Source: Candidatus Saccharimonadota bacterium (GTDB taxonomy: Bacteria; Patescibacteriota; Microgenomatia; UBA1406; GWC2-37-13). From it: a DNA stretch of 32,000 nucleotides. The notes under the pieces are model-generated. The model was not told the origin of the DNA. It did no database searches and was given only the letters and a program-made list of their open reading frames with translations. A program made the translations under genes and the position numbers. Of the stretch, positions 2,358 through 30,147 are shown one piece after another. Every line of letters begins with the position of its first letter. The stretch's first letter is position 1. The stretch spans positions 600,001 to 632,000 of the forward strand of contig CP065004.1 in the NCBI GenBank assembly GCA_016700135.1, read 5' to 3'.

Positions 2358-2459
2358 ATCAACATCACATCTTTCACATGACCTCTTCAGTGTGTTTCCG
2401 TCCATAGACGGCCCGCAACAAGCTGAAATTCTTTACTAATTACAAATTTGAATAAATTT

Positions 2460-7690: not shown

Positions 7691-7692
7691 TC

Positions 7693-11585: not shown

Positions 11586-13655
11586 ATGAGTACACAGTCC
11601 AAATCTATTAACAAGATCCTTCAATTTGTTATATACGGGATCGTATTCTTGTTCCCGCTCTTTTTTGTGCCTATAACACGGGACTTTTTGATATACAGCA
11701 AATTTTACTTTCTTGTTTTTGCTGTGTTTGGTCTTTTGTTTCTTTCATTCGGCAAATTTCTTGTCGGCAGAAAATTTACTTGGATTCATAATCCGGCAAC
11801 ACAATCGATGATTTTGATACTGCTCTCATATATCCTTTCTATCGTACTCATGTCACCGAATAAGTTACAGGCAATTTATAACCCTCAATATGGGCTGGTT
11901 ATGATCAGTGCGTTCATAATCTTTTATTTTTATGCATCGCATGTATTTTCTAAGGCAAGTATTTCTCCGATTTTACTCCTTGCGATTTCCGGTGCCTTGG
12001 TATCTGTCTTTTCCTTGATTATTATGGTTGACCCGTTCCAGAATGCAACGTTACCGGCATACTGGTCATTCCTGACAAATACAACATTCAATCCTATCGG
12101 ATCATCTATTCACTTTCTGGCATATTTGATATTTGTACTTGCCGGGCTCGGATTTTACATGTGGAGAATGTACAAATCACAAAGACATAATGATGATCAA
12201 AATAAAGTCATGATGATAATTTTAGGAGTGATTGCGCTTTTTACACTACTTGCAGGCATCTTCCATATTTTTGTGATAACACAGCAAATCATGAATGAAG
12301 GTGCTCAAATTGTGATTCCTCCCTTTGGTTTGTCTTGGTATGCTGCTGTTGAAGTCTTGAAGAACCCGATGACAGCATTATTCGGAGTAGGTGTCGACAA
12401 TTTTGCAACACTCTTTACTCAGGTTCGTTCTATAAATTACAACCTGACTGATCTGTGGCAGGTGAATTCATTCAATACCTCACGTTCGGTATTATTGCAC
12501 ATATTGACAGAAAATGGGATCTTAGGGTTAGTCGGGTTTACACTGCTTGTTTCACTTTTTTTCAAGAGAATAAAAGATGTAAAAATCGAGACCGCAGCTC
12601 TGTTTGTGATCTCGCTGATAATCATGCTGATCCTTCCTCCTTCGATCATTTCCTTCTTTATGTTCTTCCTCAGTTTGGCACTGATGGCCGCTGACCTGCA
12701 CAAGAAATCATCACAGGAAGAATATATTATTGACTTGACCGGGCTTATGCCAATATTTATCGGAATGATTGTTCTCTGTCTACTGGTACTCGGTAGTACA
12801 GTTTATTTCCTGGGACGACACTTTATGGCTGAATATTACTTCAAGAAATCTCTTGACGGAGTAGCCTCAAATAGTCTCCAGCAGCTCTATGAGAATCAGG
12901 TCAAAGCACTGCAATACAATAGTGCGAGTGAAGAATTCCATAGACAATTTGCTCAAACTAATCTGTTAGTAGCCAATAATATAGCTGCAAAAGAACAGGA
13001 CTCATTGACTGATCAGGATAGACAAACCATTGCTCAGGCAATACAGGCATCAATCGTTGAGGCAAAAACAGCAGTTTCACTGAATCCTTTGAAAGTGACG
13101 AACTGGCAAACACTTGCAGGTGTTTATCGACAGATTGTGAATGTCGCTGAAAACGCTCCTGTATGGGCAGTGTCTGCTTATCAGCAGGCAATTGTTCTGG
13201 ATCCCCGTAACCCTGTCTTGAGACTCGATCTGGGGGGAATATATTATCTTTTCCAGAACTATGATGAATCCCAGAAGATGTTTGAACAGGCTGTATCATT
13301 GAAACCGGATTGGGCGAACGCTCACTACAACCTTGCATGGACATATTATCAAAAAGGCCTTTACGGACCTGCAGTTGACCAAATGCAGATTGTAGTAGGG
13401 CTGATAGATCCTGCGACACAGCAGGAAGATTATAAAGCTGCTCAAAGCACTCTTGAAGATTTCAAGGCGAAATATCAGGAGGCTCTGGAACAGCAGGCAA
13501 CGCAGCAAGCTGGAGAAGAAGGAGAAGAAACTGTAGCTCCGAGTCCGACACCGTCACCTGCAGAATTAGTTTTACCCTCACCGCCGGCAACAAATCTTGA
13601 AGAAAAGATAGAGTTACCCGAAGAGGCTTCACCGGAAGCAAACGTTGAACCGTAA
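11586..13655 (+). CDS. O-antigen ligase / Wzy_C-like polytopic membrane protein with C-terminal TPR domain
   Basis: 689 aa with at least 10 hydrophobic helices. The Wzy_C hallmark SVLLHILTENGILGLVGF (H...E.GI.G) is present. C-terminal TPR repeats (AYQQAIVLDPRNP..., FEQAVSLKPDWANAHYNLAWTYYQKG) are followed by a Pro/Glu-rich tail. Confidence 0.8.
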   Translation: MSTQSKSINKILQFVIYGIVFLFPLFFVPITRDFLIYSKFYFLVFAVFGLLFLSFGKFLVGRKFTWIHNPATQSMILILLSYILSIVLMSPNKLQAIYNPQYGLVMISAFIIFYFYASHVFSKASISPILLLAISGALVSVFSLIIMVDPFQNATLPAYWSFLTNTTFNPIGSSIHFLAYLIFVLAGLGFYMWRMYKSQRHNDDQNKVMMIILGVIALFTLLAGIFHIFVITQQIMNEGAQIVIPPFGLSWYAAVEVLKNPMTALFGVGVDNFATLFTQVRSINYNLTDLWQVNSFNTSRSVLLHILTENGILGLVGFTLLVSLFFKRIKDVKIETAALFVISLIIMLILPPSIISFFMFFLSLALMAADLHKKSSQEEYIIDLTGLMPIFIGMIVLCLLVLGSTVYFLGRHFMAEYYFKKSLDGVASNSLQQLYENQVKALQYNSASEEFHRQFAQTNLLVANNIAAKEQDSLTDQDRQTIAQAIQASIVEAKTAVSLNPLKVTNWQTLAGVYRQIVNVAENAPVWAVSAYQQAIVLDPRNPVLRLDLGGIYYLFQNYDESQKMFEQAVSLKPDWANAHYNLAWTYYQKGLYGPAVDQMQIVVGLIDPATQQEDYKAAQSTLEDFKAKYQEALEQQATQQAGEEGEETVAPSPTPSPAELVLPSPPATNLEEKIELPEEASPEANVEP

Positions 13656-13753: not shown

Positions 13754-14583
13754 ATGTCAATATCAAAATATACTTATTCCATTTTTTTATCCGCAAGTAT
13801 TCTCATCCTTGGTACAAGCATGCATCCTCGGCAAGTATATTCGTATGTACCTTTTACAGCGGCCACCAATATTGTCCTTACACAAAAGCCTCCTGTCGGA
13901 TCCATAGTCTCTTTTGAAGACAATAAATACCGCCTAAGTGATAAGCCATATGACTCTAAAATGGTAGGAGTTGTCGTAGAACAAGCGGACATTATTGTTG
14001 AAGAGGAAAATTCAGCGTTGGCCGACACCTTGATGATCAATAAAGGAGAAACAAAGATATTAGTTAACGGTGAAACCGGACCCATTGAGGTGGGAGACCT
14101 TTTGACTGCATCAAGTACCCCGGGTCAAGCCATGAAGGCGGATAAAGATGGAATCATTGTTGCAGTCGCTACAGAATCATTTAAACCATTGAATCCTCAG
14201 GAGAGCGCGCTGATCAGAGGATTGATAGATATTCGTTTTACTACATTAGGAGACACCTTTTCTGCAGATAGTATCGGTTTGTCAGATCAGGGCATGGTCA
14301 GTACTCTGAAACGGTCAGTCTCCGAAATTTTCGGGCTTGGTTCCGGAGGATTGGCAGGGACTTCACCCATTTTCAGGTATACACTTGCAACGGTCGTTGT
14401 TGCAATAGCATTTATCAGCGGGTTTCTCCTTTTCGGTCGAATAGCGCTTCGGGGTGTAGAAGCATTGGGAGAAATCCTCTTGCCAAAAAAACAATTTTGA
14501 TAGGCATTATTATGAACTCATTTTTCACCGTACTTCTTGTTGCATTGGCGGTGGTGCTTGCGTATATCATCGTTATTGTCTGA
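13754..14583 (+). CDS. secreted/membrane protein with G2-IMC-like beta module; probable 1-nt frame break near 14469
   Basis: The track ORF is 13754..14500. It has a signal peptide, and VGSIVSF...MVGVVVE...KILVNGETGPIEVGDLLTASSTPGQAMKA is paralogous to the C-terminus of the 9793 protein (VLVTNENGPIERGASIGIGTVPGYGI). A TM helix TLATVVVAIAFISGFLLFG follows. The adjacent frame is open from 14470 to 14583 and reads RNPLAKKTILIGIIMNSFFTVLLVALAVVLAYIIVIV*. Confidence 0.6.
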
Positions 14584-14600
14584 CAATCATTGAAGAAGAG

Positions 14601-14627
14601 ATGTGTATTTTTGCACAAATTACACAT
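14601..14627 (+). terminator. AT-rich hairpin after the 13754 gene
   Basis: ATGTGTA...TACACAT stem, extendable with one bulge. T-rich sequence follows. Function is uncertain. Confidence 0.25.
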
Positions 14628-14952
14628 TGTATATGTATAAATATTTGAGAAAATTAAGTATTTTTAAAGGAGTGAGAATAGGTTGATAGACAGTATTGAT
14701 AAATTCTTCTTTATAATTTATAGAGCCCTAAATTAATAGATTTTACTTCATAATTTTGCGTACGTATCATAGGAGTGAAGCAACGTATTAATAAGAGTGC
14801 GAAATATAATTTAGGGCATAAAGAAAGGATTTAATAACTTTCAAAATAGTTGAACAAAGTCTCGAAAATACTGAGATCTAATTAATAATATTAACAATCA
14901 GGCCTAAAAAAGCCTTATTCGCACTGGACATCATAGTTTGTTTTGTGTTTTA

Positions 14953-17900
14953 ATGAAAACATATACCAAACTTTTTATGTCGACTGAACAAAAGGATTAC
15001 AACCTGTCTCCAAAAGAATTTGCACACCTGGTAGGTGTATCTTCATCTACAGTTCGACGATGGGAAGAGGAAAAAGTTTTTACTTCAGTTCGTACTCCGT
15101 CAGGATATCGAAAATTTGCGTTGAGCGATGTTCCTAAAGCGAAAGAATACAAAAATCAAGTCAATGCAATAAAAAAACAAAAAAGTCAGGAGCATATTTA
15201 CAGCATTACATCAAAGCAAGCTATTCAGAAACATAATTACCCGGTAGTGGACTTTATTTTTAAACGTGCTGCTGTATTGTCACTGGCTGTTTTACTTATG
15301 ATAGTTACTGCTGCGGCTGTCGCTACTTATCCTGCTGTGAAATCTATTATGTCGGACAGGTATCAGGCCAAGTCAGAAAAGACGTTAGGTGAAAAAGAGG
15401 GCAACATTTCTGAAACGGATGACATGAATGTACTTGCAGCTGAATCAAGCCGTTTAGCCCGTTCCATCATTAGTAATATCGGGTGGGATTTTCGCTCTAC
15501 AGTAAAAATAGAAGATCTACAGGTGAACGGGCCCTCGGTATTTTTAGATGATATTGATGCACGAGGGCAGAATCTAGATTTGGGGACAGGTAGAATTACG
15601 GCATCAAATGTCCTGTATGGGGTCGAAGCAGGCAAGGGTATCAGTATTGCAGGCACGACACAAAGCCCTTTGATAACCAATATCGATCCAGGCTCGGCAC
15701 AGGAAATTTTTAAGAATATCAAGGTTGGTTCAAATACAATTACTGCATCAAGCAATACTGACACGTTAACATTCGAGCAGGGAAGCGGGATTACTCTGAC
15801 TGTAGACGGTAAAAAAGTAACCATTGCAAGTTCACAATCAGGATATTCATACTGGACGACAGAAGTAGACGGAGTAAGTTACGACAATATAGAAGATGGA
15901 TCGTCGGTTAATTTTGTAAGCGGAGATGACATTACCGTTACGCGGTCGGCTGCAAATGAATTAACATTTAATCTCCAGGATGTTATTGATACCGTAACGG
16001 GAATAGACTTAACCGCAGGCGGTTATCTTACTGGTACCAATGCAACAATAACTTTTGATAACTTCTCGGTAGACGCAAGCGGAAATATCCGTATTGCTGC
16101 CGGGTCCGATTTTTATATCGGCAATGTGCAGTTGGGAAGTATTGGATCTTCTTCAGGAGCATCTTTAATTGGCGTAGACGGCACTAATATTTCACAGTCA
16201 GCTTCAGGAGATCTACAGACAGTTCTTGAAAATATGTCTGCTGCAATGGGATCAGGCTCTTCCAAATGGACCATTGCTTCTGATGTGATTTATCCGAATA
16301 ACTATTCAACAGCAGATTTCTCATTGGGAGGTACAACTCCAGCAAGTTCTCCGTTCGGTATAGATATTGATCAGAATATTCTGTACTTGGGGGACGGAGC
16401 AAATGATGCCAATACGCCATCTCTCTATTTCAAGGCATCGGATGGCTCAAATTGGGGAACTTTATCTTACTCGGATTCTGATAGGTTTGTTTTTTCAGGT
16501 GGTGATGTTGTTGTCGACGGTGTGATTTATGCGGGTTCAGGAACACAGCAAATCACTTTAGCAAACGGTATGCTGAATCCGAATGCGCTGCCGCTTATTA
16601 CATCCGGAACTTCACCGACAACAAGTTCCGTCTCAGGTTTTGAGATCTTAAGTAATCAAATAGGTCTTATCCGAGGCTGTTCAAACGGTGAGGTTTTAAA
16701 ATGGAATTCGACAACTTCACGGTGGACCTGTAGCCCCGATTCCTCCGGTGTATCTGGCGTTGTGGACGTACAACAGGACGGCTCTATCCCTGCAGGTTCT
16801 GCTGACTCTCAGTTTGATACGATCAATTTCGTAAATAATTTTAACCTTTCTGAAAATAGCTCTGGGGTGATTGATGTAGACCTTGCAAGCAATATCGGTA
16901 TAGGTACAGCTCCCTCAGGTTCATATGCTCTCACTGTAAATGGTGCAACAAATACAAGTACTTTGTATCTCTCAGGTACCCAGGTAACTGCTTCTGCAAA
17001 TGAGATAAATCTACTGACTGGCCGTACCGGGACATTGCTTGACACCAATAATGTAGCTACACAGTTATCAGCCTGGGATCAGAATGCTTCAGATGATGTA
17101 ACGGCTTTTACAGGACTGAGCGATACTCCTTCAAGTTATTCGGGCCAGGCAGCGAGAGTCGTACGGGTGAATGCAGGAGGTACGGGACTTGAATTTGTTG
17201 ATCCTGCAACCCTTGGGACGAATTACTGGGGGAGGAATTCAGGGAGCGGGTATGTATATCCTTCGGTCGTGACAGATAGAGTCGGAATCGGGACTTCGAC
17301 ACCCACCCAGATGTTAGATGTTCAGGGAAACATAGCAGTATCAGGTACCGTAGACGGACGTGATGTTTCAGCTGACGGATCAAATCTTGACACTCTCTAC
17401 ACGACGATCGGACTTTCGGCTTTGACGAGTGGAGAGGTCGATCAACTCGAGAACATCGGAGCTACAACAATCAGCAGTACCCAGTGGGGATATCTTGGGT
17501 CTCTTAATCAGAGTGTAAGTACTACAGATGCCGTTACTTTCACAACGATCAATACGGGACAGGGAGCCTATGAGTTGTATGCGATGGACCAGAATGTGAG
17601 GACATCTGACACTGTGCAGTTTGCAGGACTTCAGATTGGGGGAGCAACGCCGAATATCACCAGTATCGTTTCAGGAACGGGAACAGATTGGTCAGGGGCC
17701 GTTGATACCGCACTTGCTACGCAGCTTTCTATCAAATCATACGTCGATGCACAAATCGGAGGGGCAGCATATACTTTTGAAAACGGAATTTCTGAATCAG
17801 GAAATACTGTCACTCTTGGCGGTGCTTTAAATCAAAGTACACGATTATACGATGGGTCATACGAATATCTGTATATGAATACAAGCACAGGGAATGTCGG

Positions 17901-20769
17901 AATCGGTACAACAACGACAAGTACTTACAAATTAAACGTTAGTGGATCTTTGAATGCATCAAGTCTTTACTTGACTGGCAGTCAAGTAACTTCAAATGCT
18001 TCAGAATTAAATTTGCTTGATGGAGTAAGTCTTACATTAACAGCAGGTGAATTTAATTTATTGGACGGCAGGTCCGGGACATTGCTTGACACCAATAATG
18101 TAGCTACACAACTATCAGCCTGGGATCAGGACAGTTCAAATGATCTGATAACAACGGATATAGGAGTAACCGTACAAGGTTATAACGCAAATACTTCATT
18201 CCTCGGTCAGACTATTGAAAGCAGTGAGATTACGGACGGAACAATTACCACTAGTGATTTTGCCAGTACTTTGACGTTTGCATCCGGAGCATTCCTGGAC
18301 TTGTCCTCTATTGACTATGGTTCAACTGCTCCTCAGGGATTGAGATTACCGAATGCGACTTCAGCCAATCTTGCTTCAAATAATCCATCAGTGGGTGAAG
18401 GGTATTTAGCATATGATACGGACGTTAATAAAGTAAAAATATTTAACGGTTCTTCCTGGACGGATATTAGCGGAGCCTCAACCACGCTTCAGGAAGCTTA
18501 TGAAGCAGGCAACTCAATTCTCATGAATGCCGGACAGGGGAATATCAGAATTTCTAACGACGGTTCTAATGAACTATTATTCCTTGATGAAGCAACAGGA
18601 TATGTAGGGATAGGGAACACAGCTCCGGGATACAAACTGGATGTGTCAGGAGATATTCGAATTGCAAGCGGGAGTGATTTGTATATCGGAACAACGGCTT
18701 TAAGTTCTATCTCGGGTGCGGGTCTTATCGGAGTTGACAGTTCAAGTATTTCAAGTAGCAGCGCTTCGGATTTGCAATCAGTTCTTGAAGATTTGGATAG
18801 TGCTATCGGCGGAGTAGGAAATTCATCAATTTCAGCAGTCGGTAATATTACATCAGGTGATGCATTCACAAGCGGAACCCCCGGTTCCGAATTGTACTTC
18901 ACTTCATCCGGTGTTCTCGGTCTCGGAAACACCGCCTCATCAGCTGCCCGAATAGAGTTTTTCAATGACACCATAGATAGAATTTCGTTGCTCAGCTCTT
19001 ATGTCGGAATCGGAACCACTGCTCCTGTCGCGGCTCTTGATGTCCAGGGAGCAATCAGGCTTGGTGCAAGTGGGGGAATATCTGATACATTGAATACGAT
19101 TTCAGCTGGAACGGCTCCGAGTGCAAGTCTTTATTGGGGGAGTTACAGAATATGTACGACCGGAGATTCTTGTGCAGGGGGAGCAGGCGGAGGGGTAGAC
19201 AGTACGGGAGGGACAGGCTACTTAGCAAAATTTACGGATCAATATAATGTTGAAAACTCTATTCTCTATGAATCCGGAGGGAATATTGGAATAGGAACTA
19301 CTGTAACCGGTACCTATAAAGTAAATGTAAGCGGATCTTTAAACACTACAACCCTTTATCTGGCAGGTACACAAGTTAATGCAACGGCTACAGAGATCAA
19401 TTTGCTGTCGGGAAGATCAGGGACATTACTGGATACAAGCAATGTAGCTACACAACTATCAGCATGGGATCAGGATAGTTCAAATGATCTGATAACAACC
19501 GATATCGGATCAACAGTGCAGGGTTACAATGCCAATACTTCATTCCTCGGTCAGACCATTGAGACGGGAGAGATCACAGATGGGTCAGTACTTCCTGCGG
19601 ATGTAGATGACAACGGTCAGACACCTGGGGACGGACAGGTACTGACATACAATAATTCGAACAGTAAGTTTAACTGGGTTGACGCGACAAGTTTGGGTAC
19701 GAATTATTGGGGGAGGAATTCAGGGAGCGGGTACGTATATCCTGCGGTCGTGACGGACAGGGTGGGTATTGGTAATACGGCTCCTACTGAGGAGTTGGAT
19801 GTAACCGGAGATATAGCGGTGAGCGGAACAGTAGACGGACGTGATATTTCAGCAGATGGGTCAAGCTTGGATACATTGTATACAACGATCGGACTTTCAG
19901 CATTGACATCAGGAGAGGTGGATCAGTTGGAGAATATTGGAGCTGCAACGATCAGTACGTCACAATGGGGATATCTGGGCGCGATGAACCAGAGTGTAGC
20001 AACGACTGATGCAGTAACATTTACGACGATCAACACGGGACAGGGAGCGAATGAGCTGTATGCAATGGATCAAAATGTACGAACATCTGATACGGTACAG
20101 TTTGCAGGACTGCAGATCGGAGGAACGACACCTTCAATCACAAGTATCGTATCTGGAACGGGGACAGACTGGTCAGGTGCAGCTGATACTGCACTTGCCA
20201 CACAACTTGCCATCAAATCATATGTTGATAATGAAATTGCCGGAGTAACAATAGATGTTTTTACCACCTTTACTGCAGACAGCGGGAGTACAACTGCTAA
20301 TACTGCAGGGGACACACTGACAATAAACGGTTCAGGAAGTATTACAACTTCGATATCTGGAGATACACTGACAATTACCGGAACGGATAACGATACAACC
20401 TATTCCGCAGGAAGCGGCCTCAGTCTCGCAAGTACTACTTTCAGTCTGGGAGGAGCAATATCACAGCCGACACGTCTCTATGACGGATCATATGAGTATC
20501 TTTATATCAACAACAGTACAGGGAATCTTGGTATAGGGACAACATCGACAGGCACATATAAGTTAAATGTCGGCGGGTCTTTGAATGCATCGTCTCTTTA
20601 TCTTGGCGATACTCAAGTGACATCAACAGCTTCTGAATTGAATTTGCTTGACGGAGTAAATCTCACACTTACTGCTTCAGAATTTAATTTACTGGACGGC
20701 AGATCAGGGACATTACTTGACACAAACAATGTCGCAACACAACTTTCAGCCTGCATCAAACAGCAGTAA
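14953..20769 (+). CDS. giant fibre protein, intact N-terminal 5.8 kb: MerR-type HTH + TM anchor + repeat fibre
   Basis: Track ORF 14938..20769 starts at TTG; the first ATGs are 14953 and 14977. LSPKEFAHLVGVSSSTVRRWEEEKVF...SGYRKF (14998-15117) is a MerR/HTH_17-type helix-turn-helix. The TM helix is AAVLSLAVLLMIVTAAAVATYPAV (15268-15339). The rest is Gly/Ser/Thr-rich, with recurring GIGTTxP..KL(N/D)V.G and ATELNLL.GRSGTLLDTNNVATQLSAWDQ modules. The TAA at 20767 arises from frame loss inside such a module, so it is not a natural end. Confidence 0.85.
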   Translation: MKTYTKLFMSTEQKDYNLSPKEFAHLVGVSSSTVRRWEEEKVFTSVRTPSGYRKFALSDVPKAKEYKNQVNAIKKQKSQEHIYSITSKQAIQKHNYPVVDFIFKRAAVLSLAVLLMIVTAAAVATYPAVKSIMSDRYQAKSEKTLGEKEGNISETDDMNVLAAESSRLARSIISNIGWDFRSTVKIEDLQVNGPSVFLDDIDARGQNLDLGTGRITASNVLYGVEAGKGISIAGTTQSPLITNIDPGSAQEIFKNIKVGSNTITASSNTDTLTFEQGSGITLTVDGKKVTIASSQSGYSYWTTEVDGVSYDNIEDGSSVNFVSGDDITVTRSAANELTFNLQDVIDTVTGIDLTAGGYLTGTNATITFDNFSVDASGNIRIAAGSDFYIGNVQLGSIGSSSGASLIGVDGTNISQSASGDLQTVLENMSAAMGSGSSKWTIASDVIYPNNYSTADFSLGGTTPASSPFGIDIDQNILYLGDGANDANTPSLYFKASDGSNWGTLSYSDSDRFVFSGGDVVVDGVIYAGSGTQQITLANGMLNPNALPLITSGTSPTTSSVSGFEILSNQIGLIRGCSNGEVLKWNSTTSRWTCSPDSSGVSGVVDVQQDGSIPAGSADSQFDTINFVNNFNLSENSSGVIDVDLASNIGIGTAPSGSYALTVNGATNTSTLYLSGTQVTASANEINLLTGRTGTLLDTNNVATQLSAWDQNASDDVTAFTGLSDTPSSYSGQAARVVRVNAGGTGLEFVDPATLGTNYWGRNSGSGYVYPSVVTDRVGIGTSTPTQMLDVQGNIAVSGTVDGRDVSADGSNLDTLYTTIGLSALTSGEVDQLENIGATTISSTQWGYLGSLNQSVSTTDAVTFTTINTGQGAYELYAMDQNVRTSDTVQFAGLQIGGATPNITSIVSGTGTDWSGAVDTALATQLSIKSYVDAQIGGAAYTFENGISESGNTVTLGGALNQSTRLYDGSYEYLYMNTSTGNVGIGTTTTSTYKLNVSGSLNASSLYLTGSQVTSNASELNLLDGVSLTLTAGEFNLLDGRSGTLLDTNNVATQLSAWDQDSSNDLITTDIGVTVQGYNANTSFLGQTIESSEITDGTITTSDFASTLTFASGAFLDLSSIDYGSTAPQGLRLPNATSANLASNNPSVGEGYLAYDTDVNKVKIFNGSSWTDISGASTTLQEAYEAGNSILMNAGQGNIRISNDGSNELLFLDEATGYVGIGNTAPGYKLDVSGDIRIASGSDLYIGTTALSSISGAGLIGVDSSSISSSSASDLQSVLEDLDSAIGGVGNSSISAVGNITSGDAFTSGTPGSELYFTSSGVLGLGNTASSAARIEFFNDTIDRISLLSSYVGIGTTAPVAALDVQGAIRLGASGGISDTLNTISAGTAPSASLYWGSYRICTTGDSCAGGAGGGVDSTGGTGYLAKFTDQYNVENSILYESGGNIGIGTTVTGTYKVNVSGSLNTTTLYLAGTQVNATATEINLLSGRSGTLLDTSNVATQLSAWDQDSSNDLITTDIGSTVQGYNANTSFLGQTIETGEITDGSVLPADVDDNGQTPGDGQVLTYNNSNSKFNWVDATSLGTNYWGRNSGSGYVYPAVVTDRVGIGNTAPTEELDVTGDIAVSGTVDGRDISADGSSLDTLYTTIGLSALTSGEVDQLENIGAATISTSQWGYLGAMNQSVATTDAVTFTTINTGQGANELYAMDQNVRTSDTVQFAGLQIGGTTPSITSIVSGTGTDWSGAADTALATQLAIKSYVDNEIAGVTIDVFTTFTADSGSTTANTAGDTLTINGSGSITTSISGDTLTITGTDNDTTYSAGSGLSLASTTFSLGGAISQPTRLYDGSYEYLYINNSTGNLGIGTTSTGTYKLNVGGSLNASSLYLGDTQVTSTASELNLLDGVNLTLTASEFNLLDGRSGTLLDTNNVATQLSACIKQQ
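17212..18120 (+). repeat. segmental duplication, copy A (coding)
   Basis: 17212-17748 is colinear with 19693-20229 at a constant offset of 2481 nt with no indels. 17815-18120 is colinear with 20446-20751 at an offset of 2631 nt. The encoded proteins are highly similar (LGTNYWGRNSGSGYVYP...SIKSYVD; LYDGSYEYLY...QLSA). Confidence 0.85.
19693..20751 (+). repeat. segmental duplication, copy B (coding, with an extra 150 nt)
   Basis: Partner of 17212-18120. It carries a 150-nt insertion around 20245-20395 (TIDVFTTFTADSGSTT...). The differences between the copies are mostly third-codon-position changes. Confidence 0.85.
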
Positions 20770-23700
20770 TGATGCAATTTATCACATCGCTTACGTCAGG
20801 ATATCTTCCGTACTATGACGGATCAAATCTGGCCAATAGTACCATATATTTGACAGAGGCAATCTTGGCATAGGGACAACAAATCCGTCACAAGCTTGAT
20901 ATCGCTAATTCAACTTTAACGAGAGGATTTAATGTTGTGATGGATACAGATACGGCTGCATACACCTATGGAGGGTATACTGAAATTACAAATGCTTCCG
21001 GTGACTCAGTCGGCCAGATGGTCGTTACTAATCCTCAGCTGGAAGATATTCCACTGGTTATCACGCCAATGTGGAGGCAGGTGCAATGCTTACGGCTTCT
21101 ATACTAATACAACTTCTTCCAACGGGATATTCTATCGGAGTATATCAAACGTTTATGGAGCCGGCGCATCCTCAAATGCGACATGGCGGAATGTTCATGG
21201 CAGAAACTCCGAACATGGAAGCTTACGGTATTTATGCTGCGCAAATCGATACCGGAGGTGGTAAGGCATGGGCAGGATATTTTGACGAAGGAGATGTATT
21301 TATTGCAAATAATGTCGGAATCGGAACCACTTCGACGAGCACATACGCTTTAAATATTAACGGATCGTTAAATACCACCTCATTGTATTTGGCGGGATCT
21401 CAAGTTAGTGCTACTGCCACTGAACTGAATCTGCTTTCAGGAAGATCAGGGACACTTCTGATACAAACAATGTATCGGCACAACTTTCAGCCTGGATCAA
21501 AACAGCAGTAATGATGCACTTATCACATCGCTTACGTCAGGATATCTTCCGTATTATGACGACTGAACCTGGCAAATAGTGCTTTCTACCAGCGGGCGGA
21601 AATATCGGAATCGGTACGACAAACCCCACAGCAAAGCTTCAACTCATTCAAGAGGCAGACTTCCGTACACGGAATTAGCCTACAGAAGGCAGCACTGAAA
21701 GAATGAATTATATGGGGACAGGATCAAATACGTATCTCGACCTTAATCAAAATACGGCAATATCAGAAATACCTCTGCAACAGGAAACATGTGCATATAA
21801 CACTTCCGCGAAGAATCAGCTTTCGTCAACAGATGGCACAGTAGGAGGATTTAGGTTTACTACAAATAATGGTGATAGTTTGGAGATTACAAAGGATGGG
21901 TATGTTAGTATCGGAACGACTACTCCTGCATACGCTCTCGATGTCAACGGTGATATCCGGATAGTAAGCGGTAGGAACTTTATAGTTACGGAAGCGCAAC
22001 GCTAGAATCATACATATTCTGAAGATAACTACATAACTGACGGACAGACATTCACGGCTAGTATTGATGCCCTAGATCAACAGGTAAAGATCTTGCTAAT
22101 AGGAAGCAGGAATGTGGCAGGATCAGACTACCTATATCAATCCAATTAACTTTACCAGTCTGGCCATTACCGATACGGGGGAGAATGGGATCGAACAACG
22201 AACCAAATAACCCGCTTTCTGTGGTCGGGAATGCAGACTTTACGGAAATGTCGGTATCGGAACAACTGAGGTAGGTACATACGCTCTGAATGCGTTGCAG
22301 GGAGCAAATTTTAACAGCATCTATAGGTGGTACGGCAATTGCAGCGACGGCAACTGAACTCAATATTTCTCAGGGCAACAGTCTCAACAGCAGAACCGGA
22401 ATTATCTTGATAACTCAATGGTCACGAACGGATGAATTGTGTTTGGCAACGGTGCCACTTTCACACAAGATGCCGCTACTTCTTTCTGGAATGATAGCAG
22501 CAATTATCTGGGTATCGGTACAACTGCACCGCGCTACTTGATCTATTTGGTACAACAGCAGCATTTCAGATGTCATATGACGCCAGTAATTACGGTAAAT
22601 TCACGATCGGAATGACGGCACACTTACCTGGCGGAGTCAAAGTGCCGGTGGCTCATCACTAATATTGCCCGTTTCTCGACAACAGGAGTAATATCGATGT
22701 CCTGACATCATTCAATGCGACGGGAGATCGTCAGTATCGCAAATGATCTTCAGTTTACCAATCAGTCGGCAGCTATATCAAGACTCTCGGACCTCTTACC
22801 ATCGAAGCCGGAGAAAGTTATGAAAGCAATAACCTGAAATTGAAAACATACAACAGCGGAAGAATAGTGTTTGATGCGCAGGGGAGTGGCACCCAATCAG
22901 GCTCAAAACTGGGATCTTGTCACTTCTACCACAGCCTTGAATTTTGAAAGTGGTCTTTTCAATATTGATACAACAAACAGTAGAATCGGAATTGGTACAA
23001 CAGCACCGGGGCACAAACTGGATGTTTCAGGAGATATTAATGTATCTTCCGTATACAGAATTGGAGGAACTACGGTACTATCTCACAGTTCATCAGGTGA
23101 AAACTGCATTATGGGATTGGATGCAGGTAGTACAGCACCACATCAGAGCTACACAATTAACATTGGTCATGGCAGCATTAATCTAAATAGTACTAACGCC
23201 GATCAAAATACTTGTAGGAGCATGGGCGGACAAAGTGTTACCAGTGGAAAATAATAATGTCCCGATAGAAATGATTCCGGCGCAACACTGACTACAGGAT
23301 ACAACAACTTTATCGGAGGATCTTGGGCTGGTATTGGTTCACGGCAGCATATAACGTAGCTCTGGGTTATTCTGCAGGAGGAAGTAATACAAACAGGAAA
23401 CAGCAATACGATGGTGGGTGCATGCTGATGTCACGTCAGGAGGTAATTACAATACAGTACTGGGCTGTTCAAAACGCAGCTTCAGCATATAGTTCGTCTA
23501 TCATGCTGGGTTACTCTGCCGTAGCTACTGCATCAAACCAATTTCTCGTGGGTGGAAATAATGCAAACGGATATATTAATGATACGTATTTCGGTCGGGG
23601 AGTAGTAGTGCTACGCCGAATGACATAACACTGAATGCCACCGGAGGATCAGTGCAGTGATATTACCGGAGCAAATATGATTCCCGCAGGCGGTAAAGCA

Positions 23701-24378
23701 ACGGGAATGCAGACGGCGGAGATATTATTTTTAAGACTTCCGATGTCGGGCTCGTCAGGGACCACGTTGCAGTCACTTACTGAAAAATGAGATTGACTGA
23801 TGAAGGAAGACTCGGAATCGCACTACAGCCTCGGATGCAACCTCGATGTCAACGGCAGCGGTAACTTTACAAGTCTGTGTGTCGGAGGAACCCAAATCTC
23901 AGCGACAGCAACAGAGCTGAATATTCTTTCAGGGCTACCATTTCAACAGCAGAACTGAATTATCTGGACAACTCAACAGTCATGAACGGAGGAATTGTGT
24001 TTGGGAACGGTGCAAATTTCACGCAGGATGCAGCAAATTTCTTCTGGAATGATACATCAAAATAGATTGGGTATCGGGACTACGGCACCGAATACGTCAT
24101 TGGAATTGTTCGGAAGTACGGCAGGATTACAATTTGTCATATGATGCAATTAATTACGGTACCCACGATCGGGAGTGATGGGACATTGACATTGGCAGGA
24201 GTAAGTGCAGGCGGATCACTTACGAATATTGCGCGATTCTCAACATCTGCTGTCAACATTGATGTTCCGACATCATTTAATGCAGCCGGTGATGTGTCTG
24301 TCGCATATGATTTGTACTTCACGAATCAGACAGCATCATACATAAAATCGGACGGGCCTTCAGTATCGTGTCCAGTGA
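20770..24378 (+). pseudogene. frame-broken continuation of the giant fibre gene
   Basis: Fibre motifs continue but hop between all three frames. Fragments in the ORF track are 21071..21511 (NVGIGTTSTSTYALNINGSLNTTSLYLAGSQVSATATELNLLSGRSGTLL), 21703..22005, 22290..22541, 22871..23254 (SRIGIGTTAPGHKLDVSGDINV), 23323..23628 (Hep_Hag-like LGYSAVATASNQFLVGG), 23877..24065 (TAELNYLDNSTVMNGGIVFGNGANFTQDAANFFWND) and 24141..24386 (GSDGTLTLAGVSAGGSLTNIARFSTS...). No antisense ORF is convincing. Confidence 0.7.
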
Positions 24379-25746
24379 AGCCTTGAGAACAATGATCTGA
24401 CCATCGAGACCTATGGGACAGGAAATATTGTTCTGAAAGCAAACAGCGGAAATATATGGGCAGACGGATCTGCAGTCGGTATCGGGACAACTGCTCCTGC
24501 ACGGACATTGCATGTAATCGTGGGTTCGACGGCACCGCCGGTCAGATTCCAAGATTCAGACGGGTACTGTGAGATCAATCCTACAACGACTACCTGGACG
24601 TGTACCTCTGATGCTACATTAAAGGAAGATGTTGAGACACTTTCAAGCATCTATAATCTTGAAAAACTCAATCAGCTGAGACCTGTTTCATTCAAGTGGA
24701 AAACTCAAAATGATGATGATAAGCGCTTCGGACTTATTGCCCAGGAAGTTGAAACATTGTTCCCCGAATTTGTACAGACGGATGAAAACGGATTGAAATC
24801 TGTATCCTACGGATCATTTACCCCGATTCTGATTTCTGCCGTGCAGGAGCAGCAACTTCAGATTGAAGGTCAGCAAAGCAGTCTCACAAAACTGACGGAG
24901 GAGCTTGCACTTGTAGTAAATGAAGATACGGGTGTAGTAACAAGCAGTCTTATTGATACTCTTACTGAGGAAACAGAGAATATCGCTGATCGGACGGCTG
25001 CGGTTGAAGGAGAGGTTGAAGCACTGGCGGAAAAAGACAGTCAGATTGAGACACGGCTTATTACCATTGAAGAAAGACTCAATGCGCTTGAACAGGCATC
25101 TGCATCAGCCTCGCTCGATAATTTGAATGATCGTGTAGGATTCCTTGAACAATTATTTACTGGTATTCAGGCATCCGGTTCTGCTGATTTGAGTACGTAT
25201 CTGGCCGAGCTCATCGATGGTCAAATTCTCGGTCTTCAGTCAGATGAAGCAACTCTCTCTGCATTGACAGTGAGCGGAGATACGAATGTAAACAATCTTG
25301 CCGTAACAGGGGAGATCAGCAGCGGACTTTTGATTATCAACGGATTTGATGACTCACTCGCGACACCAGCTGCTACTATCTCTACGCTGGGAGGATCTCT
25401 CAAGATTCAACATCTCGGACTTGGAGAAATCGAATTTATGGCAGGTAAGTCAAAAATTGATACGGACGGAGACTTTATCATGTTAGAAGGAGATTTGGTA
25501 ATAGAAACAGGGGTGATCAAAGGAAATGATCAATTCAGAGGAATTGACGTGCCGGCAGTATTTAGCTCAACTTACCTTGATATCGATTTTGAGAGCATGA
25601 AAGATACGGACGAGTATGCTGTAAACATTACTCCGACTTGGCTTACAAATGTAGCAGTCATAGAGAAACGGACGGATGGTTTCCGTCTCCAGTTCTCAGT
25701 ACCTGCACCTTTGAACGGAAAAATCGACTGGATGATTATTGAATAA
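24379..25746 (+). CDS. C-terminal part of the giant fibre gene: Peptidase_S74 intramolecular-chaperone domain + coiled coil + beta-rich terminal domain
   Basis: The frame is open from 24379 with no ATG. The track start 24508 is a TTG inside a GIGTTAPARTLHV motif, so this is a continuation and not a separate gene. TSDATLKEDVETL...LRPVSFKWK...RFGLIAQEVETLFPEFV...GLKSVSYGSFTPILISAVQEQQ is the S74 (endosialidase chaperone) signature, at about 24604-24870. Confidence 0.85.
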   Translation, partial: SLENNDLTIETYGTGNIVLKANSGNIWADGSAVGIGTTAPARTLHVIVGSTAPPVRFQDSDGYCEINPTTTTWTCTSDATLKEDVETLSSIYNLEKLNQLRPVSFKWKTQNDDDKRFGLIAQEVETLFPEFVQTDENGLKSVSYGSFTPILISAVQEQQLQIEGQQSSLTKLTEELALVVNEDTGVVTSSLIDTLTEETENIADRTAAVEGEVEALAEKDSQIETRLITIEERLNALEQASASASLDNLNDRVGFLEQLFTGIQASGSADLSTYLAELIDGQILGLQSDEATLSALTVSGDTNVNNLAVTGEISSGLLIINGFDDSLATPAATISTLGGSLKIQHLGLGEIEFMAGKSKIDTDGDFIMLEGDLVIETGVIKGNDQFRGIDVPAVFSSTYLDIDFESMKDTDEYAVNITPTWLTNVAVIEKRTDGFRLQFSVPAPLNGKIDWMIIE

Positions 25747-25760
25747 AATCTACCGTTATT

Positions 25761-28700
25761 ATGAAAGTAAGGATTAAGCAAATAAAGAAACTACTGATTG
25801 ATTTTCTCCGAAAACGGAAAAGAACTGTCATGTTGGCAGGTGGAGGTTTGATTCTTGCTTTCATAATTATTGGATTTATTGATAAACAAATAGGTTTATT
25901 TAAGGCAAGTTCTTTGGATCCTGTCGCATACTGGAAATTTGATGAGGGATACGGTACGGCCGTGAATGATTCGTCAGGAAACGGAATGACCGGAACTCTG
26001 GGGACAGGTTCGTCTGCTCCTACATGGCAGGCTAAAGAGTATTGTATAAGTGAAAAGTGTTTGAAATTTGATGGGTCAGAAGATTATGTACAGCGGGCAG
26101 ATAATGCAGCCCTTGATATTGAAAGCGAACTTAGTATTTCGTTGTGGATTAAACCTACTACCCTCAATGGCGGTACGTACTATACGTTGGTGTATAAAGG
26201 GAACTCAACGAATGAAGCTAACTATTATCTTCAAATCTATGGAGATGAACTTAATTTCGGAAACTACCAAGCCGGATGGAAGGGCACGGCTACGACTGAT
26301 GCAAATATTCCGACAAATCAATGGACTCATGTGGCTATGACTTATTCAGATGCCTTAGATGATATCGATTTTTATGTCAACGGTATATTGAAGACGGATA
26401 ACGGACAGGACCATGACATGGTATTATCAGCAAACAATCAACCGTTTTACCTGGGTTCATCTGCTGCAGAGCTGGAATTCTATGAAGGATTTCTGGACGA
26501 AGTAAGGATATATTCATATGTACGTACTCCCGATCAGATAAAAATGGACTTTCAGGGAGGAGGATCTCATGGCTCAAGTATTCGGATAGGAGATGCTGAT
26601 TACAGTTTTTTGAGTCAGGGGCTGATCACTTATTGGAAAATGGACGAGGCAGGAGTTGATGCTGAAGGAGAGACTCTTTCCAACTCCTCAGGTACTTCTC
26701 ATAATATTACACTCTATGGAGATAATTCGACAGGAGACAACGGGACAGGAATGGATTGTACTGCAGAAGGTGTTTACGGTACGGGATGTCAGTTTGACGG
26801 AGTGGATGATTATGTAAATCTGAATAGATTTAATTACTTTGACGGAACGTCGGAGATGACGGTAAGTGTATGGATCAAACCCGACTTTACAACAACGGAG
26901 GCGAGTAATAGATATATTTGGGCAGTGTCGAATTTCAGTTTGATGTTCAATACCAATCAAGATGACTTTACTTTATCTATGAATCCGACGGGAGGAAGTC
27001 TCAACCTGAATACTTCAGGACTCACCTGGACCCAAAATACATGGCATCATATAGCAGCGACTTATAACGGGTCCCAAGCCATTATCTATTGGGATGGGGT
27101 AGCAGTCGCGACAGGTAATGCATCGGGAGTTCTCAACCCCTCAGGAGCAACAGAATATTTGGGAGCATTCAATACGACCAGTTACCATTGGCTCGGCGCA
27201 ATGGATGAAATCAGAACGTATCAAAGGGCACTTACTGCGCAGGAGATACAGTCACTCTATAATTGGTCTCCCGGACCTGTCGGTTATTGGAAACTGGATG
27301 AAGGTTCAGGCACTACTGTTTATGACAGCAGCGGCAACGGGAATAACTCCAGTGCTTGGTCCGGGAATACCAAATGGGTCCAGGGGAAATACGGTTCTGC
27401 AACATCGCACGACGGAAGCGGAGATCGGATCACGATTCCGAGTTCGACAACACTCGATTATCAACCGAAATATACTTGGTCAGCTTGGCTCAATCCCACA
27501 GCGGGGAGTTATGAAATATTTGATAAAGCCGCTGACACAAACAACGGATGGAAAATCGGATCGAATGGTAATAAATATGCACTCACAATTTATTATACCG
27601 GTGATGATTTGATGTGCACTGTGCCAGCTGTAAACATGACAGTCGGAGAATGGCAGCATATCGCCTGGACGTGGGATGGTACAACGAGTTGTACCGGTGT
27701 GAAATTTTATAAAAACGGGAACTTAATTTCTTTTGAATCCACTACATCTCCTACCGGTACACGAGAAGTTGATACCGGTAAACAAATTCTCATCGGCGGA
27801 AACGGATATACCGATTATCCCGGTTTGATTGATGATTTTAAAATCTACAACTACGTCAGGACACAGGAACAAATTCTTGAGGATATGAATGCCGGTCATC
27901 CCACCATCGGCACACCTGTCGGCTCAACGGTTCTGCACTTGAGGATGGATGAAGGATACGGAACGATTGCCCATGACAGTAGTCCTCAGGGCAATGACTC
28001 AACAATCAGCGGTTCTACTTGGACAAATGACGGAAAATCCGGAAAAGGAATGTCTTTCAACGGTACATCAGGGTATGTAAATGCAGGTTCGAATGAATCT
28101 CTCGATGATTTGTCGACAGTGACTGTCAGCGCCTGGATCTATCCTACAGGTTATGGGGAAGGCGGGTTCGGCAGAATTGTAAATAAGAGCAATACCAGCA
28201 ATACCAATTGGGCACTTACCCTTGTGAATGATTCTTCACAGCAAAGCATACGATTCTTTAAAGAGCGTGATACGGCATCAAATGCAACTCAGGTTACTGC
28301 TGCAAACGGTTCTATACAGCTGAATCGTTGGTATCATGTCGTCGGAGTATATGATGAAAGTGCCACTCCGCGCATGAAACTATTCATAGACGGAGTTGAA
28401 GCCTCATATGCCGAACAGATAGAAGGAACGGGTACGCCTGACACAGATGCCAGTTACAGTCTGACGGTTGGGAATCGCCTGGGTGGAGACAGGACATTTC
28501 AGGGTATCATTGATGAAGTCAAGATCTACCCTTTTGCTCTTACGGCAGAGCAAATTAAAATGGATCTTCAGGGAGGCAAGTCACTGGTTCTTGGTGCACA
28601 GAGCACCGGAGTAGGGGGGACATCTCCATCAAATTCATCCGACCGTTCATATTGTATACCCGGCGATACCTCTACCTGCAGTGCTCCCGTACTTGAACTT

Positions 28701-30104
28701 GATTTTGAAGAAGCAACGGGACAGACGGCATATGATACAAGTACGAACGGGAACAACGGTCAATTAGGCTCAGCCAGCGGAGTTGACAGTTCGGATCCAA
28801 CATGGGGACTCGGACCTGACCATATGGCCGGAAGTGCCGTAGAGCTGGATGGCACTGATGATTATGTTCGTGTTGCCGACTCTGCATCACTTGATTTTCA
28901 GAACGGAAGTATCTCAGTTAGTATGTGGGTTTATTGGAACGGGAGCAGTAATTACGAAAGGATTTTGAGTAAAGCCAATACGGGATCACCTTACCACGGT
29001 GATTTTTATTTACAAATTAACGGAGCCGAAAGTCCTCAAAAAATAATTGGCCGATTTAAAACAGGGTCAGGTACGAGTGAAAATCCAATAGTTGAGACTA
29101 CTACTGATTTCCCTACAAATCAATGGGTTTTTGTTTCTGCAACTTTTAATACAAATACAAATACCAGCAGGCTGTATATTAACGGGGCACTTATTGACGA
29201 GGATACATCGAGCACGGAAGAAATTGTAGACAATTCCGGATTCTTGTGCGTCGGATGTAACTCATCTTTTACATCCTCAAATTTTAACGGGAAAATCGAC
29301 AATGTAAGGATTTACGACTACGCCAGAACTCCCGCTCAAATAGCCTGGGAATACAGTAAAGGGGCACCAATTGCACATTATCGTCTGGATGAATGTCAGG
29401 GGACAACAGCCAATAACTCTGCATTCACACCCACGGGTACAGCGGGGAACAACGGGACAATAACTGCCGGATCCTCCGGCAACACTAGTGTCGGGACGTG
29501 TACGTCCGGAAGCGGCACGGAAATGTGGGCAAACGGAGCATCAGGTCAATGGGAGGCAAGCCTTGATTTTGATGAGGTAGACGATAGGCTGGTCATTCCT
29601 GATATGGATCTCGGACAGGAGTTTACGGTTTCATTTTGGTTCAACTCAGTTGACAATACCGGCACGGGATATCAATATATGTACAGTCATGGGACGATTC
29701 AGACCGCAAATTCACTCAATATTTACTTTAATGAAGATAGTAATGCCATCAATACTCCCGGCACCATCCTTGTGAGCATTATGGATAGCAATGATGGTAT
29801 CCCGCTCCTTTCTCAGGATGTAGAGACACAAATCGGATTATCTGACAGCACGTGGCATCATCTTGTGGTGACTGTTACCTCTTCAGGAACAAAGGCATAT
29901 ATTGACGGAGTCCAGCAGATTTCGTATACAAACGGAAATAATGGAATCAATCCTTCAGGCAGTATCTATATCGGTGCAAGAAATGATCTTAATGTGACTT
30001 GTTTTTATGACGGTAAACTCGATGATGTTCGTATTTATAACTATCCCTTAACCACAACTCAGATAAAGGAACTATATAAAGGCGGAGCGGTTGTTTTCAA
30101 GTGA
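25761..30104 (+). CDS. membrane-anchored protein with six LamG (Laminin_G_3 / concanavalin-A-like) domains
   Basis: 1447 aa with an N-terminal TM helix VMLAGGGLILAFIIIGFI. There are six modules. Each opens with (Y)W(K/R).DEG.G....D.SGNG and closes with (L/I)D(E/D)V(R/K)IY.Y.(R/L)T..QI. The closing motifs lie at about 26490, 27200, 27830, 28510, 29300 and 30020. Confidence 0.85.
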   Translation: MKVRIKQIKKLLIDFLRKRKRTVMLAGGGLILAFIIIGFIDKQIGLFKASSLDPVAYWKFDEGYGTAVNDSSGNGMTGTLGTGSSAPTWQAKEYCISEKCLKFDGSEDYVQRADNAALDIESELSISLWIKPTTLNGGTYYTLVYKGNSTNEANYYLQIYGDELNFGNYQAGWKGTATTDANIPTNQWTHVAMTYSDALDDIDFYVNGILKTDNGQDHDMVLSANNQPFYLGSSAAELEFYEGFLDEVRIYSYVRTPDQIKMDFQGGGSHGSSIRIGDADYSFLSQGLITYWKMDEAGVDAEGETLSNSSGTSHNITLYGDNSTGDNGTGMDCTAEGVYGTGCQFDGVDDYVNLNRFNYFDGTSEMTVSVWIKPDFTTTEASNRYIWAVSNFSLMFNTNQDDFTLSMNPTGGSLNLNTSGLTWTQNTWHHIAATYNGSQAIIYWDGVAVATGNASGVLNPSGATEYLGAFNTTSYHWLGAMDEIRTYQRALTAQEIQSLYNWSPGPVGYWKLDEGSGTTVYDSSGNGNNSSAWSGNTKWVQGKYGSATSHDGSGDRITIPSSTTLDYQPKYTWSAWLNPTAGSYEIFDKAADTNNGWKIGSNGNKYALTIYYTGDDLMCTVPAVNMTVGEWQHIAWTWDGTTSCTGVKFYKNGNLISFESTTSPTGTREVDTGKQILIGGNGYTDYPGLIDDFKIYNYVRTQEQILEDMNAGHPTIGTPVGSTVLHLRMDEGYGTIAHDSSPQGNDSTISGSTWTNDGKSGKGMSFNGTSGYVNAGSNESLDDLSTVTVSAWIYPTGYGEGGFGRIVNKSNTSNTNWALTLVNDSSQQSIRFFKERDTASNATQVTAANGSIQLNRWYHVVGVYDESATPRMKLFIDGVEASYAEQIEGTGTPDTDASYSLTVGNRLGGDRTFQGIIDEVKIYPFALTAEQIKMDLQGGKSLVLGAQSTGVGGTSPSNSSDRSYCIPGDTSTCSAPVLELDFEEATGQTAYDTSTNGNNGQLGSASGVDSSDPTWGLGPDHMAGSAVELDGTDDYVRVADSASLDFQNGSISVSMWVYWNGSSNYERILSKANTGSPYHGDFYLQINGAESPQKIIGRFKTGSGTSENPIVETTTDFPTNQWVFVSATFNTNTNTSRLYINGALIDEDTSSTEEIVDNSGFLCVGCNSSFTSSNFNGKIDNVRIYDYARTPAQIAWEYSKGAPIAHYRLDECQGTTANNSAFTPTGTAGNNGTITAGSSGNTSVGTCTSGSGTEMWANGASGQWEASLDFDEVDDRLVIPDMDLGQEFTVSFWFNSVDNTGTGYQYMYSHGTIQTANSLNIYFNEDSNAINTPGTILVSIMDSNDGIPLLSQDVETQIGLSDSTWHHLVVTVTSSGTKAYIDGVQQISYTNGNNGINPSGSIYIGARNDLNVTCFYDGKLDDVRIYNYPLTTTQIKELYKGGAVVFK

Positions 30105-30147
30105 TATTTCTTCTTGTTCCTTCGATCAAAAACAGGTAGAATGAAGT

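Follow-up and report, generated by a model that had tools for sequence, protein, structure and literature searches.

A giant S74-terminated surface fibre gene in a Roizmanbacteria genome, split in the public record by a probable assembly artefact

We analysed a window of 32,000 nucleotides (nt; positions 600,001 to 632,000 of contig CP065004.1, numbered from 1 below), which belongs to the circular metagenome-assembled genome (MAG) Kalu_18-Q3-R12-55_MAXAC.194_uni (CP065004; Patescibacteria; Microgenomatia; genus UBA1450). Sequence comparison with orthologous loci supports the reading that positions 14953 or 14977 to 25746 of the plus strand constitute a single gene of approximately 3,600 codons from Candidatus Roizmanbacteria, a lineage of the Candidate Phyla Radiation (CPR, or Patescibacteria). 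The predicted product is a membrane-anchored fibre protein, with a helix-turn-helix (HTH) domain at the N-terminus and a Peptidase_S74 chaperone domain towards the C-terminus. After restoring the net lost bases, the gene would have about 3,610 codons. The many frame breaks between 20758 and 24385 are, with a probability that we put at roughly 0.85, an assembly artefact that is absent from the organism.

Organization of the fibre gene

The 5’ open reading frame (ORF), running from TTG 14938 or ATG 14953 to 20769, is the sole stop-free stretch of its frame. Candidate starts of the giant gene are ATG 14953 and ATG 14977, the latter of which is used both by GenBank and by the gene call in an orthologous locus, L001 (‘MSTEQKDYNL’). 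The ORF encodes approximately 1,800 amino acids (aa) of repetitive fibre with ‘VGIGTT...’ modules, and stops inside a repeat module. Its terminus reads ‘...LLDTNNVATQLSACIKQQ*’, where three earlier copies of the module read ‘...QLSAWDQ(D/N)(S/A)S(N/D)D...’. A DNA comparison of the four module copies places the first break at 20740–20769, where ‘QLSAW DQN’ has turned into ‘QLSACIKQQ*’; relative to L001, 2 nt are lost at 20758 and 1 nt is gained at 20776.

The adjoining stretch (20770–24378) contains about 50 stop codons in each forward frame, and the longest ORF on either strand has at most 146 residues. Fibre modules are still recognizable there by tblastn, with a switch of frame every few dozen codons. 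The frame of the 3’ block is open from 24379 to 25746, with TTG 24508 as the earliest in-frame start codon. This block opens in the middle of a module, which is unbroken in the homologous proteins P0003, P0010 and P0080.

When delimited by insertions and deletions (indels), the gene comprises an intact 5’ part, a broken block and an intact 3’ part. The 5’ part (14953–20757) is a stop-free frame with no indels relative to L001, and equals the GenBank protein QQS44617.1 from 14977 onwards. The fibre-coding block of 3,628 nt (20758–24385) holds some 60–70 small indels, mostly deletions of 1–2 nt. The 3’ part (24386–25746, with the stop codon at 25744–25746) encodes the end of the fibre, the S74 chaperone domain, a coiled-coil region and a C-terminal domain; it has no indels relative to L001 or to a second orthologous locus, L003, and is a 100% match to QQS44624.1 from the annotated start of that protein. 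An earlier note on this DNA, made by a model from the letters and their ORFs, had described the same three-block layout, with the first ORF stopping in a module, modules continuing in shifting frames and the 3’ ORF beginning mid-module, and its coordinates were correct.

In CP065004, the giant gene is split into several coding sequences, of which four are confirmed and up to eight are implied by the accession run QQS44617–QQS44624. They include QQS44617.1 (14977–20769, plus strand; 1,930 aa), named ‘MerR family DNA-binding transcriptional regulator’, the hypothetical proteins QQS44620.1 (21703–22005) and QQS44623.1 (24141–24386), both of which are frame fragments, and QQS44624.1, the 3’ end of the giant gene. 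Taken literally, the separate listing of these four entries describes three or more genes, encoding a 1,930-aa MerR regulator, small hypothetical proteins and a 408-aa tail-fibre protein, and many homologues of the S74 block do have a length of just 367–763 aa. We nevertheless regard separate genes as highly improbable: the stop of the first ORF lies in a module that goes on in another frame, the S74 block opens mid-module without a start codon, the small ORFs are frame fragments of fibre modules, and orthologous ORFs cross both boundaries, with no conserved stops seen there in L001 or L003. A search for a separate promoter or terminator of the S74 block returned promoter-like and terminator-like sites at or below the shuffle expectation. 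The public annotation needs correction, in that one gene has been split and a fibre fragment has been named a MerR regulator.

Orthologous loci read through the breaks

Two orthologous loci were used for comparison. L001 (GCA_964504235.1, contig CAZDDM010000009.1), which was reached via a cluster mate of the S74 protein, has 91.4% nucleotide identity to the window. L003 (DCTC01000001.1), from a Roizmanbacteria genome of genus UBA1450, is 75–80% identical, and its unit spans 10.4 kb, versus 10.8 kb in the window. An ORF of 3,066 aa in L001, starting with the same HTH domain and transmembrane (TM) helix, is colinear with 14181–22189 of the window (gene part 14977–22189), and passes unbroken through the end of the first window ORF and the first 1.4 kb of the broken stretch. 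A second L001 ORF (1,956 aa) holds the S74 end, and is colinear with the window from 24070 onwards.

The earlier note had proposed a frameshift-aware protein-to-DNA alignment as a check. We wrote such an alignment for the comparison of the L003 protein with the window DNA. Residues 2–2289 of a single 2,289-aa ORF of L003 align to 18563–25743, spanning the end of the first ORF, the entire broken stretch and the S74 block, and all 31 frameshifts needed for the alignment fall within 20752–24383, with none in the flanks. An independent homologue, P0124 (1,755 aa), combines a MerR-type HTH and a Peptidase_S74 domain in one uninterrupted chain. Because the orthologous ORFs read through and P0124 joins the HTH to the S74 domain, the functional state is that of a single gene. 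The same note had arrived at this order of parts (HTH, TM helix, more than 3,000 aa of fibre, S74 domain) and had named separate orthologous genes at the block boundaries as the observation that would speak against it; the ORFs of L001 and L003 cross these boundaries unbroken.

The window, L001 and L003 assemblies are each broken at a different place, and each is intact where the other two break. In L003, an 11-nt deletion at 4480–4600 (around 4540; ‘GGAT[ATGTAGGGATA]GGGAAC’ in the window) costs the protein ‘YVGI’ and divides the unit, leaving ORFs of 1,202 and 2,289 aa; it is either real or a short-read assembly error. The called genes of L001 (3,066 and 1,956 aa) overlap by one base at 10001, and are separated by a frame-changing deletion junction at approximately 9866: the locus is without about 300 nt found at 22700–23000 of the window, and its frame changes at ‘IARFSTTGVN|’ to ‘KLGIGTTAPGYKLDV’. 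Judged by this sequence, the split between the two L001 genes is a deletion junction and not a true gene boundary.

The contigs of L001/L002 and L004 were deposited as ‘uncultured Gammaproteobacteria bacterium’ (isolates SRP093185_co1_196 and co1_18). The label of L001 looks wrong, because its DNA is 91% identical to a Roizmanbacteria (Patescibacteria) genome over more than 12 kb. A metagenome scan for a contig nearly identical to the window gave a best match of 83% identity, in which just 681 bp of upstream sequence were present. Exact look-ups of P0001 and of the LamG protein encoded after the fibre gene had no match in the contig index.

Origin of the frame breaks

Indels relative to L001 are confined to the block with sharp edges, at 20758 and 24385. 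There are none in the 5,805 bp of the first ORF (14953–20757), 28 in the 1,432 bp of 20758–22189 (23 deletions of 1–3 nt and 5 insertions, lying in 20758–22177), four in the 316 bp of 24070–24385, and none in the 3,541 bp of 24386–27926. The contrast between the first ORF and the block is highly significant (Fisher p = 2.5e-20). Within the block, 22207–22691 has 13 gap openings relative to L001, and 22888–24383 requires 21 frameshifts relative to the L003 protein. The density over 20758–24385 is about one indel per 50 bp, and 82% of the block indels are deletions of 1–3 nt. At the rate of the block, 26.6 indels would be expected in 24386–25743, and none is observed (P = 3e-12). Four indel events in 24133–24385 are identical in the comparisons with L001 and with L003, and are therefore specific to the window sequence.

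Substitutions show a different pattern. We counted mismatches by codon position (1/2/3) in the frame of the orthologue. The first ORF is about 93% identical to L001 over 5,805 bp, with mismatches of 3.0/1.4/18.0%. In the block (20758–22189) the values are 5.6/2.9/26.2%, compared with 4.8/2.3/26.2% in the intact 18901–20757; relative to L003, they are 15.3/9.3/49.0% in the block (23021–24385) and 13.7/5.7/49.9% in the intact 24386–25743. The excess of substitutions in the block amounts to approximately 0.4–1.1 per indel.

These numbers bear on whether the block is a genuinely decaying, pseudogenized part of the gene, in which a frameshift at 20758 truncated the fibre while the first ORF and the S74 block survive as separate products. 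Bacterial decay proceeds mainly by small indels, with a bias towards deletions, in line with the 23 deletions against 5 insertions, and the block indels are not limited to homopolymers; moreover, rho in the same window is frameshifted too, and a frame break is present in both orthologous assemblies. However, base substitutions outnumber indels several-fold in natural mutation spectra, according to mutation-accumulation data, so that codon-position bias should no longer be visible in a pseudogene that has taken an indel every 50 bp. Neutral erosion should add many substitutions across all codon positions, but the third-position bias of the flanks is fully kept in the block, with at most about one extra substitution per indel. 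Decay should also run to the end of the gene, whereas 24386–25746 has no indels against about 27 expected (P = 3e-12); simple erosion of the sequence behind an inactivating mutation is hard to reconcile with the absence of indels after 24385. The right-hand edge of the block offers no start codon and no promoter-like signal above chance, and an S74 chaperone minus its fibre has no known role. With the codon-position bias retained and the remainder of the gene (24386–25743) free of indels, the block does not behave as a pseudogene, and we consider real decay improbable. The assembly recipe of the MAG, in contrast, predicts exactly such a block.

The MAG has a coverage of 19.5x in Illumina (ilmcov) and 14.4x in Nanopore reads (npcov) (Supplementary Data 3, PMC8012365). 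MAGs with the suffix ‘_uni’ were assembled with ‘unicycler ... --no_correct --no_pilon --mode bold’, and extra polishing is described for Flye contigs only (PMC8012365). Where no path exists in the short-read graph, Unicycler fills in raw long-read consensus, and Pilon is the step that normally lowers small errors in Unicycler assemblies (PMC5481147). The source assembly thus inserts long-read consensus and skips short-read polishing, and the block is sharp-edged, dominated by indels, deletion-biased and specific to this assembly. Indel-rich, substitution-poor changes are the product expected of a low-depth Nanopore consensus. We propose that the block is a Nanopore consensus bridge with which Unicycler joined two Illumina contigs in the absence of a graph path, and which stayed unpolished owing to --no_pilon. 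The error pattern and the published methods make it most likely that this particular block is such a long-read bridge. The pseudogene-like pattern of hidden frames would then be accounted for by the way in which the public genome was assembled. More generally, weighing codon-position bias and indel density against an orthologue can separate sequencing indels from real decay without recourse to reads.

Several other accounts of the block were considered. Strain microdiversity may be what broke the short-read graph at this place. Exact internal repeats as the cause of a graph tangle were rejected, the repeats being merely 63–84% identical. Homopolymer compression was likewise discarded as an error signature: runs of at least 5 nt are rarer in the block, yet the orthologue is also poor in such runs there, and two of the eight runs of at least 4 nt in the compared block stretch carry an indel. 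An RNA gene or intron was also considered; no tRNA and no Rfam family at gathering score was found anywhere in the window.

Alternatively, the deposited DNA could be correct and rescued by recoding, be it programmed frameshifting, insertional RNA editing or an alternative genetic code. The persistence of recognizable coding sequence is the only point that speaks for it. The block would require some 60–70 shifts of mixed sign and size with no common slippery motif, where programmed ribosomal frameshifting is a matter of one or two shifts, at slippery sites that are conserved; every frame contains all three stop codons, so that no single reassignment suffices; and the orthologues encode the same residues without shifts. 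We know of no recoding system of this kind in bacteria, and the chance that one operates here is close to negligible.

Five points weigh against an assembly artefact in an otherwise intact single gene. First, the L001 and L003 assemblies carry one frame break each, and no assembly contains the whole gene uninterrupted. Second, the window is without approximately 4.3 kb of modules that are present in L001 between the equivalents of 22190 and 24070, including LVIVD repeats, and the number of modules inside the bridge could be wrong. Because the window is colinear with L003 in this region, the sequences suggest that the difference of 4.3 kb is probably a real one between species. Third, only about six of 16 one-nucleotide deletions fall in homopolymer runs, unlike the classic homopolymer-only signature of polished Nanopore consensus; the error pattern looks more like that of a low-depth, simple-majority consensus of noisy reads. 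Fourth, there is a slight excess of mismatches at codon position 2 relative to L003 (9.3% versus 5.7%). Fifth, rho, elsewhere in the window, is frameshifted too, which points either to further assembly errors or to a genome that tolerates real frameshifts. Rho (2448–3757, plus strand) is split by one frameshift at approximately 2915–2925, with 2448–2990 covering profile positions 17–150 and 2909–3754, in another frame, covering positions 139–413 of 413. The break resembles the loss of 1 nt from a CCC run (ACTTCCTTCATCCT); it would be another assembly error or else a real lesion, in a gene that normally matters to the cell.

Domain architecture and predicted topology

The N-terminal part of the protein contains a MerR-type HTH (15010–15117; Pfam PF00376, E = 6.6e-9, 35.9 bits against a cut-off of 28.2, residues 20–55), which is predicted to be cytoplasmic and is conserved in L001, L003, P0078 and P0104, among others. 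It is followed by a single TM helix (‘AAVLSLAVLLMIVTAAAVATYPAV’, residues 106–129, 15268–15339), located by Kyte-Doolittle hydropathy: its 19-residue mean of 2.6 is the highest of the protein, and the runner-up elsewhere reaches 1.4. Because the residues FKR lie just before the helix, the positive-inside rule suggests an N-in, C-out topology, and the fibre protein is probably a type-II membrane protein.

The match to MerR_1 is limited to positions 2–49 of 69, after which come a Lys-rich linker, the TM helix and more than 3,000 aa of fibre. The canonical MerR layout, with a dimerization coiled-coil and a C-terminal effector-binding domain in a protein of about 120–300 aa, is not found here. By its sequence, the giant protein carries a MerR-type HTH but is not a canonical MerR regulator.

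The Peptidase_S74 domain (chaperone of endosialidase; Pfam PF13884) occupies 24607–24774 and starts with ‘SDATLK’. The match scores 59.3 bits against a cut-off of 22 (E = 4.5e-16), and covers profile positions 1–57 of 58 and residues 77–132 of the last block; the domain is also present in L001 and L003. At its start, ‘TCTS-DATLK-EDV’ aligns with ‘SAS-DERLK-REI’ in the ‘SASDERLK’ region of the tail fibre 8jov, with the Lys five residues past the Ser. We take these two residues to be the Ser/Lys dyad, by comparison with endoNF. The position of the S74 domain at the C-terminal end of the fibre chain is apparent from the continuity between fibre and S74 in orthologous ORFs (2,289 aa in L003; P0080, 1,956 aa), a continuity that is interrupted in the window by the indel block only.

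From these features we propose the following arrangement. The HTH and the Lys-rich linker would lie in the cytoplasm, a single TM helix would cross the membrane, and a modular fibre of more than 3,000 aa, consisting of diverged ‘VGIGTT...’ repeats, would extend outside. The predicted C-terminal S74 domain, with its candidate Ser/Lys site (TS|DATLK), would be followed by a coiled-coil and a C-terminal domain. By analogy with the S74 domains of phage endosialidases and tail fibres, the C-terminal domain may nucleate trimer folding of the fibre, after which self-cleavage and release would follow. We infer both this mechanism of trimerization and autocleavage and the membrane topology from such likenesses.

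Two Cys-loop motifs stand out, as cysteines are otherwise very rare in the giant protein. The internal motif (CSNGEVLKWNSTTSRWTCSPD, 16678–16740) is conserved in L001 and L003; the other (CEINPTTTTWTCTSD, 24568–24612) ends at the predicted S|D autocleavage site, and is conserved in P0002, P0005, P0010, L001 and L003. Both had been located at exactly these positions in the earlier note, which took their resemblance as a hint that the gene grew by end-to-end fusion or duplication of shorter fibre genes. Closer comparison did not bear that idea out. The likeness is limited to six residues (WTC[ST][PS]D), and the loops differ in size (C-x16-C versus C-x10-C); the 130 aa around the two motifs are dissimilar (BLASTP E = 37), and Pfam, even when relaxed to E <= 1, detects no trace of S74 after the internal motif. 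We therefore find no support for end-to-end fusion; as far as the motif sequences can tell, they may represent a shared small disulphide loop.

The combination of HTH, TM helix and stalk is recurrent. An exhaustive phmmer search with the N-terminal 248 aa (window 14977–15720) gave 329 matches at E <= 1e-3, of which 46 are at E <= 1e-10; a search with the first 640 aa gave two matches, its candidate list being swamped by low-complexity fibre words. Many of the stronger matches involve the N-terminus of the matched protein, which in some cases is 1,400–4,700 aa long. Long proteins of this kind include P0104 (3,145 aa, with a LamG domain), P0157 (4,725 aa) and P0185 (2,830 aa), and P0124 ends in S74. 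As judged from these sequence matches, the HTH-TM anchor of a fibre is an unusual but recurrent, uncharacterized architecture, and a literature search found nothing specific on this HTH-TM-fibre architecture in CPR bacteria. One could imagine a single-polypeptide contact sensor, in which the host- or surface-binding state of the fibre is relayed to the tethered DNA-binding domain in an episymbiotic CPR cell, or an arrangement in which the base of the fibre is pinned to the chromosome; we regard this idea as unlikely.

Genomic neighbourhood

The neighbours of the fibre gene in the window are cellular: fmt, rho, a TrxB-like reductase, glutamate dehydrogenase (gdh) and an M23/LysM peptidase. A phage origin was rejected, as these are housekeeping neighbours and a megablast search of 14900–25800 against 50,697 phage records gave no match.

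A 1,447-aa protein with six Laminin_G_3 (LamG) domains is encoded at 25761–30104 on the plus strand, beginning 14 nt past the fibre stop. In L001, the six-LamG protein is followed by a 1,812-aa LamG/DUF2341 protein, the counterpart region of which would be 30105–32000 in the window. These genes appear to form a cluster for giant surface proteins, possibly a single operon.

Upstream, the ‘IMC autoproteolytic cleavage’ domain of Peptidase_G2 is recognized in a 538-aa ORF (9793–11409, plus strand) at 29 bits, above the cut-off of 25; on this match, the ORF would encode a second self-cleaving chaperone protein of phage-tailspike type in the neighbourhood. It is adjoined by a 689-aa TPR protein (11586–13655). 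Between the Peptidase_G2 ORF and a PaaX-like gene (8266–9018, minus strand), positions 9001–10000 are AT-rich, with a GC fraction of 0.27, versus about 0.40 elsewhere. Two plus-strand ORFs at 6608–7690 and 7345–8274 overlap by 345 bp. The LysM and M23 peptidase encoded by the first is complete; the second (309 aa) matches nothing in Pfam or NCBIfam, and its real start probably lies downstream of 7690, a frameshift being the alternative.

Just before the fibre gene, at 14471–14718, there are four 1-nt deletions relative to L001, in the last 30 nt of the ORF at 13754–14500 and in the intergenic region. Owing to the first of these, the 248-aa protein encoded upstream has a C-terminus different from that in L001. 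Genomes that are 91% identical are expected to differ in this way.

Comparison with known systems

The sharply bounded, indel-rich stretch resembles the long-read-consensus bridges of Unicycler (Wick et al. 2017, PMC5481147), and the assembly shares with them the bold mode and the absence of Pilon; the bridge in the present case is deduced from these resemblances.

Membrane-tethered one-component regulators of the ToxR/CadC type join an N-terminal DNA-binding domain in the cytoplasm, via one TM helix, to a large extracytoplasmic part. The layout predicted here resembles theirs, but the HTH is of the MerR/HTH_17 type and not an OmpR-type winged helix, and the part outside is a giant fibre instead of a sensor domain.

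Homology exists with the ‘tail fiber domain-containing’ surface proteins of Patescibacteria and Bacteroidota (P0002–P0010), which are 45–83% identical over the S74 and C-terminal region, and share the ‘GIGTT’ module vocabulary and the CxxNPxxxxWTCTSD loop. In contrast to the window protein, they are mostly 370–770 aa long, several have beta-propeller (YncE/LVIVD) modules, and they do not have the HTH-TM N-terminus.

With the S74 proteins among phage endosialidases and tail fibres (K1F endoNF, 8jov), the window protein has in common the C-terminal S74 domain, the ‘S-D-x-x-x-K’ site, a long repetitive fibre before the domain and a coiled-coil after it. In contrast to the phage fibres, the gene is chromosomal in a CPR bacterium and lies among housekeeping genes, the protein has about 3,600 aa, an HTH and membrane anchor take the place of a virion-attachment domain, and about 300 aa follow the S74 core. 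The gene belongs to the known bacterial S74-terminated fibres, and is nothing categorically new; it adds a clear case, from a CPR bacterium, of a surface fibre that is giant, S74-terminated and anchored with a cytoplasmic HTH. In these episymbionts, giant surface proteins are plausible tools for attachment to the host.

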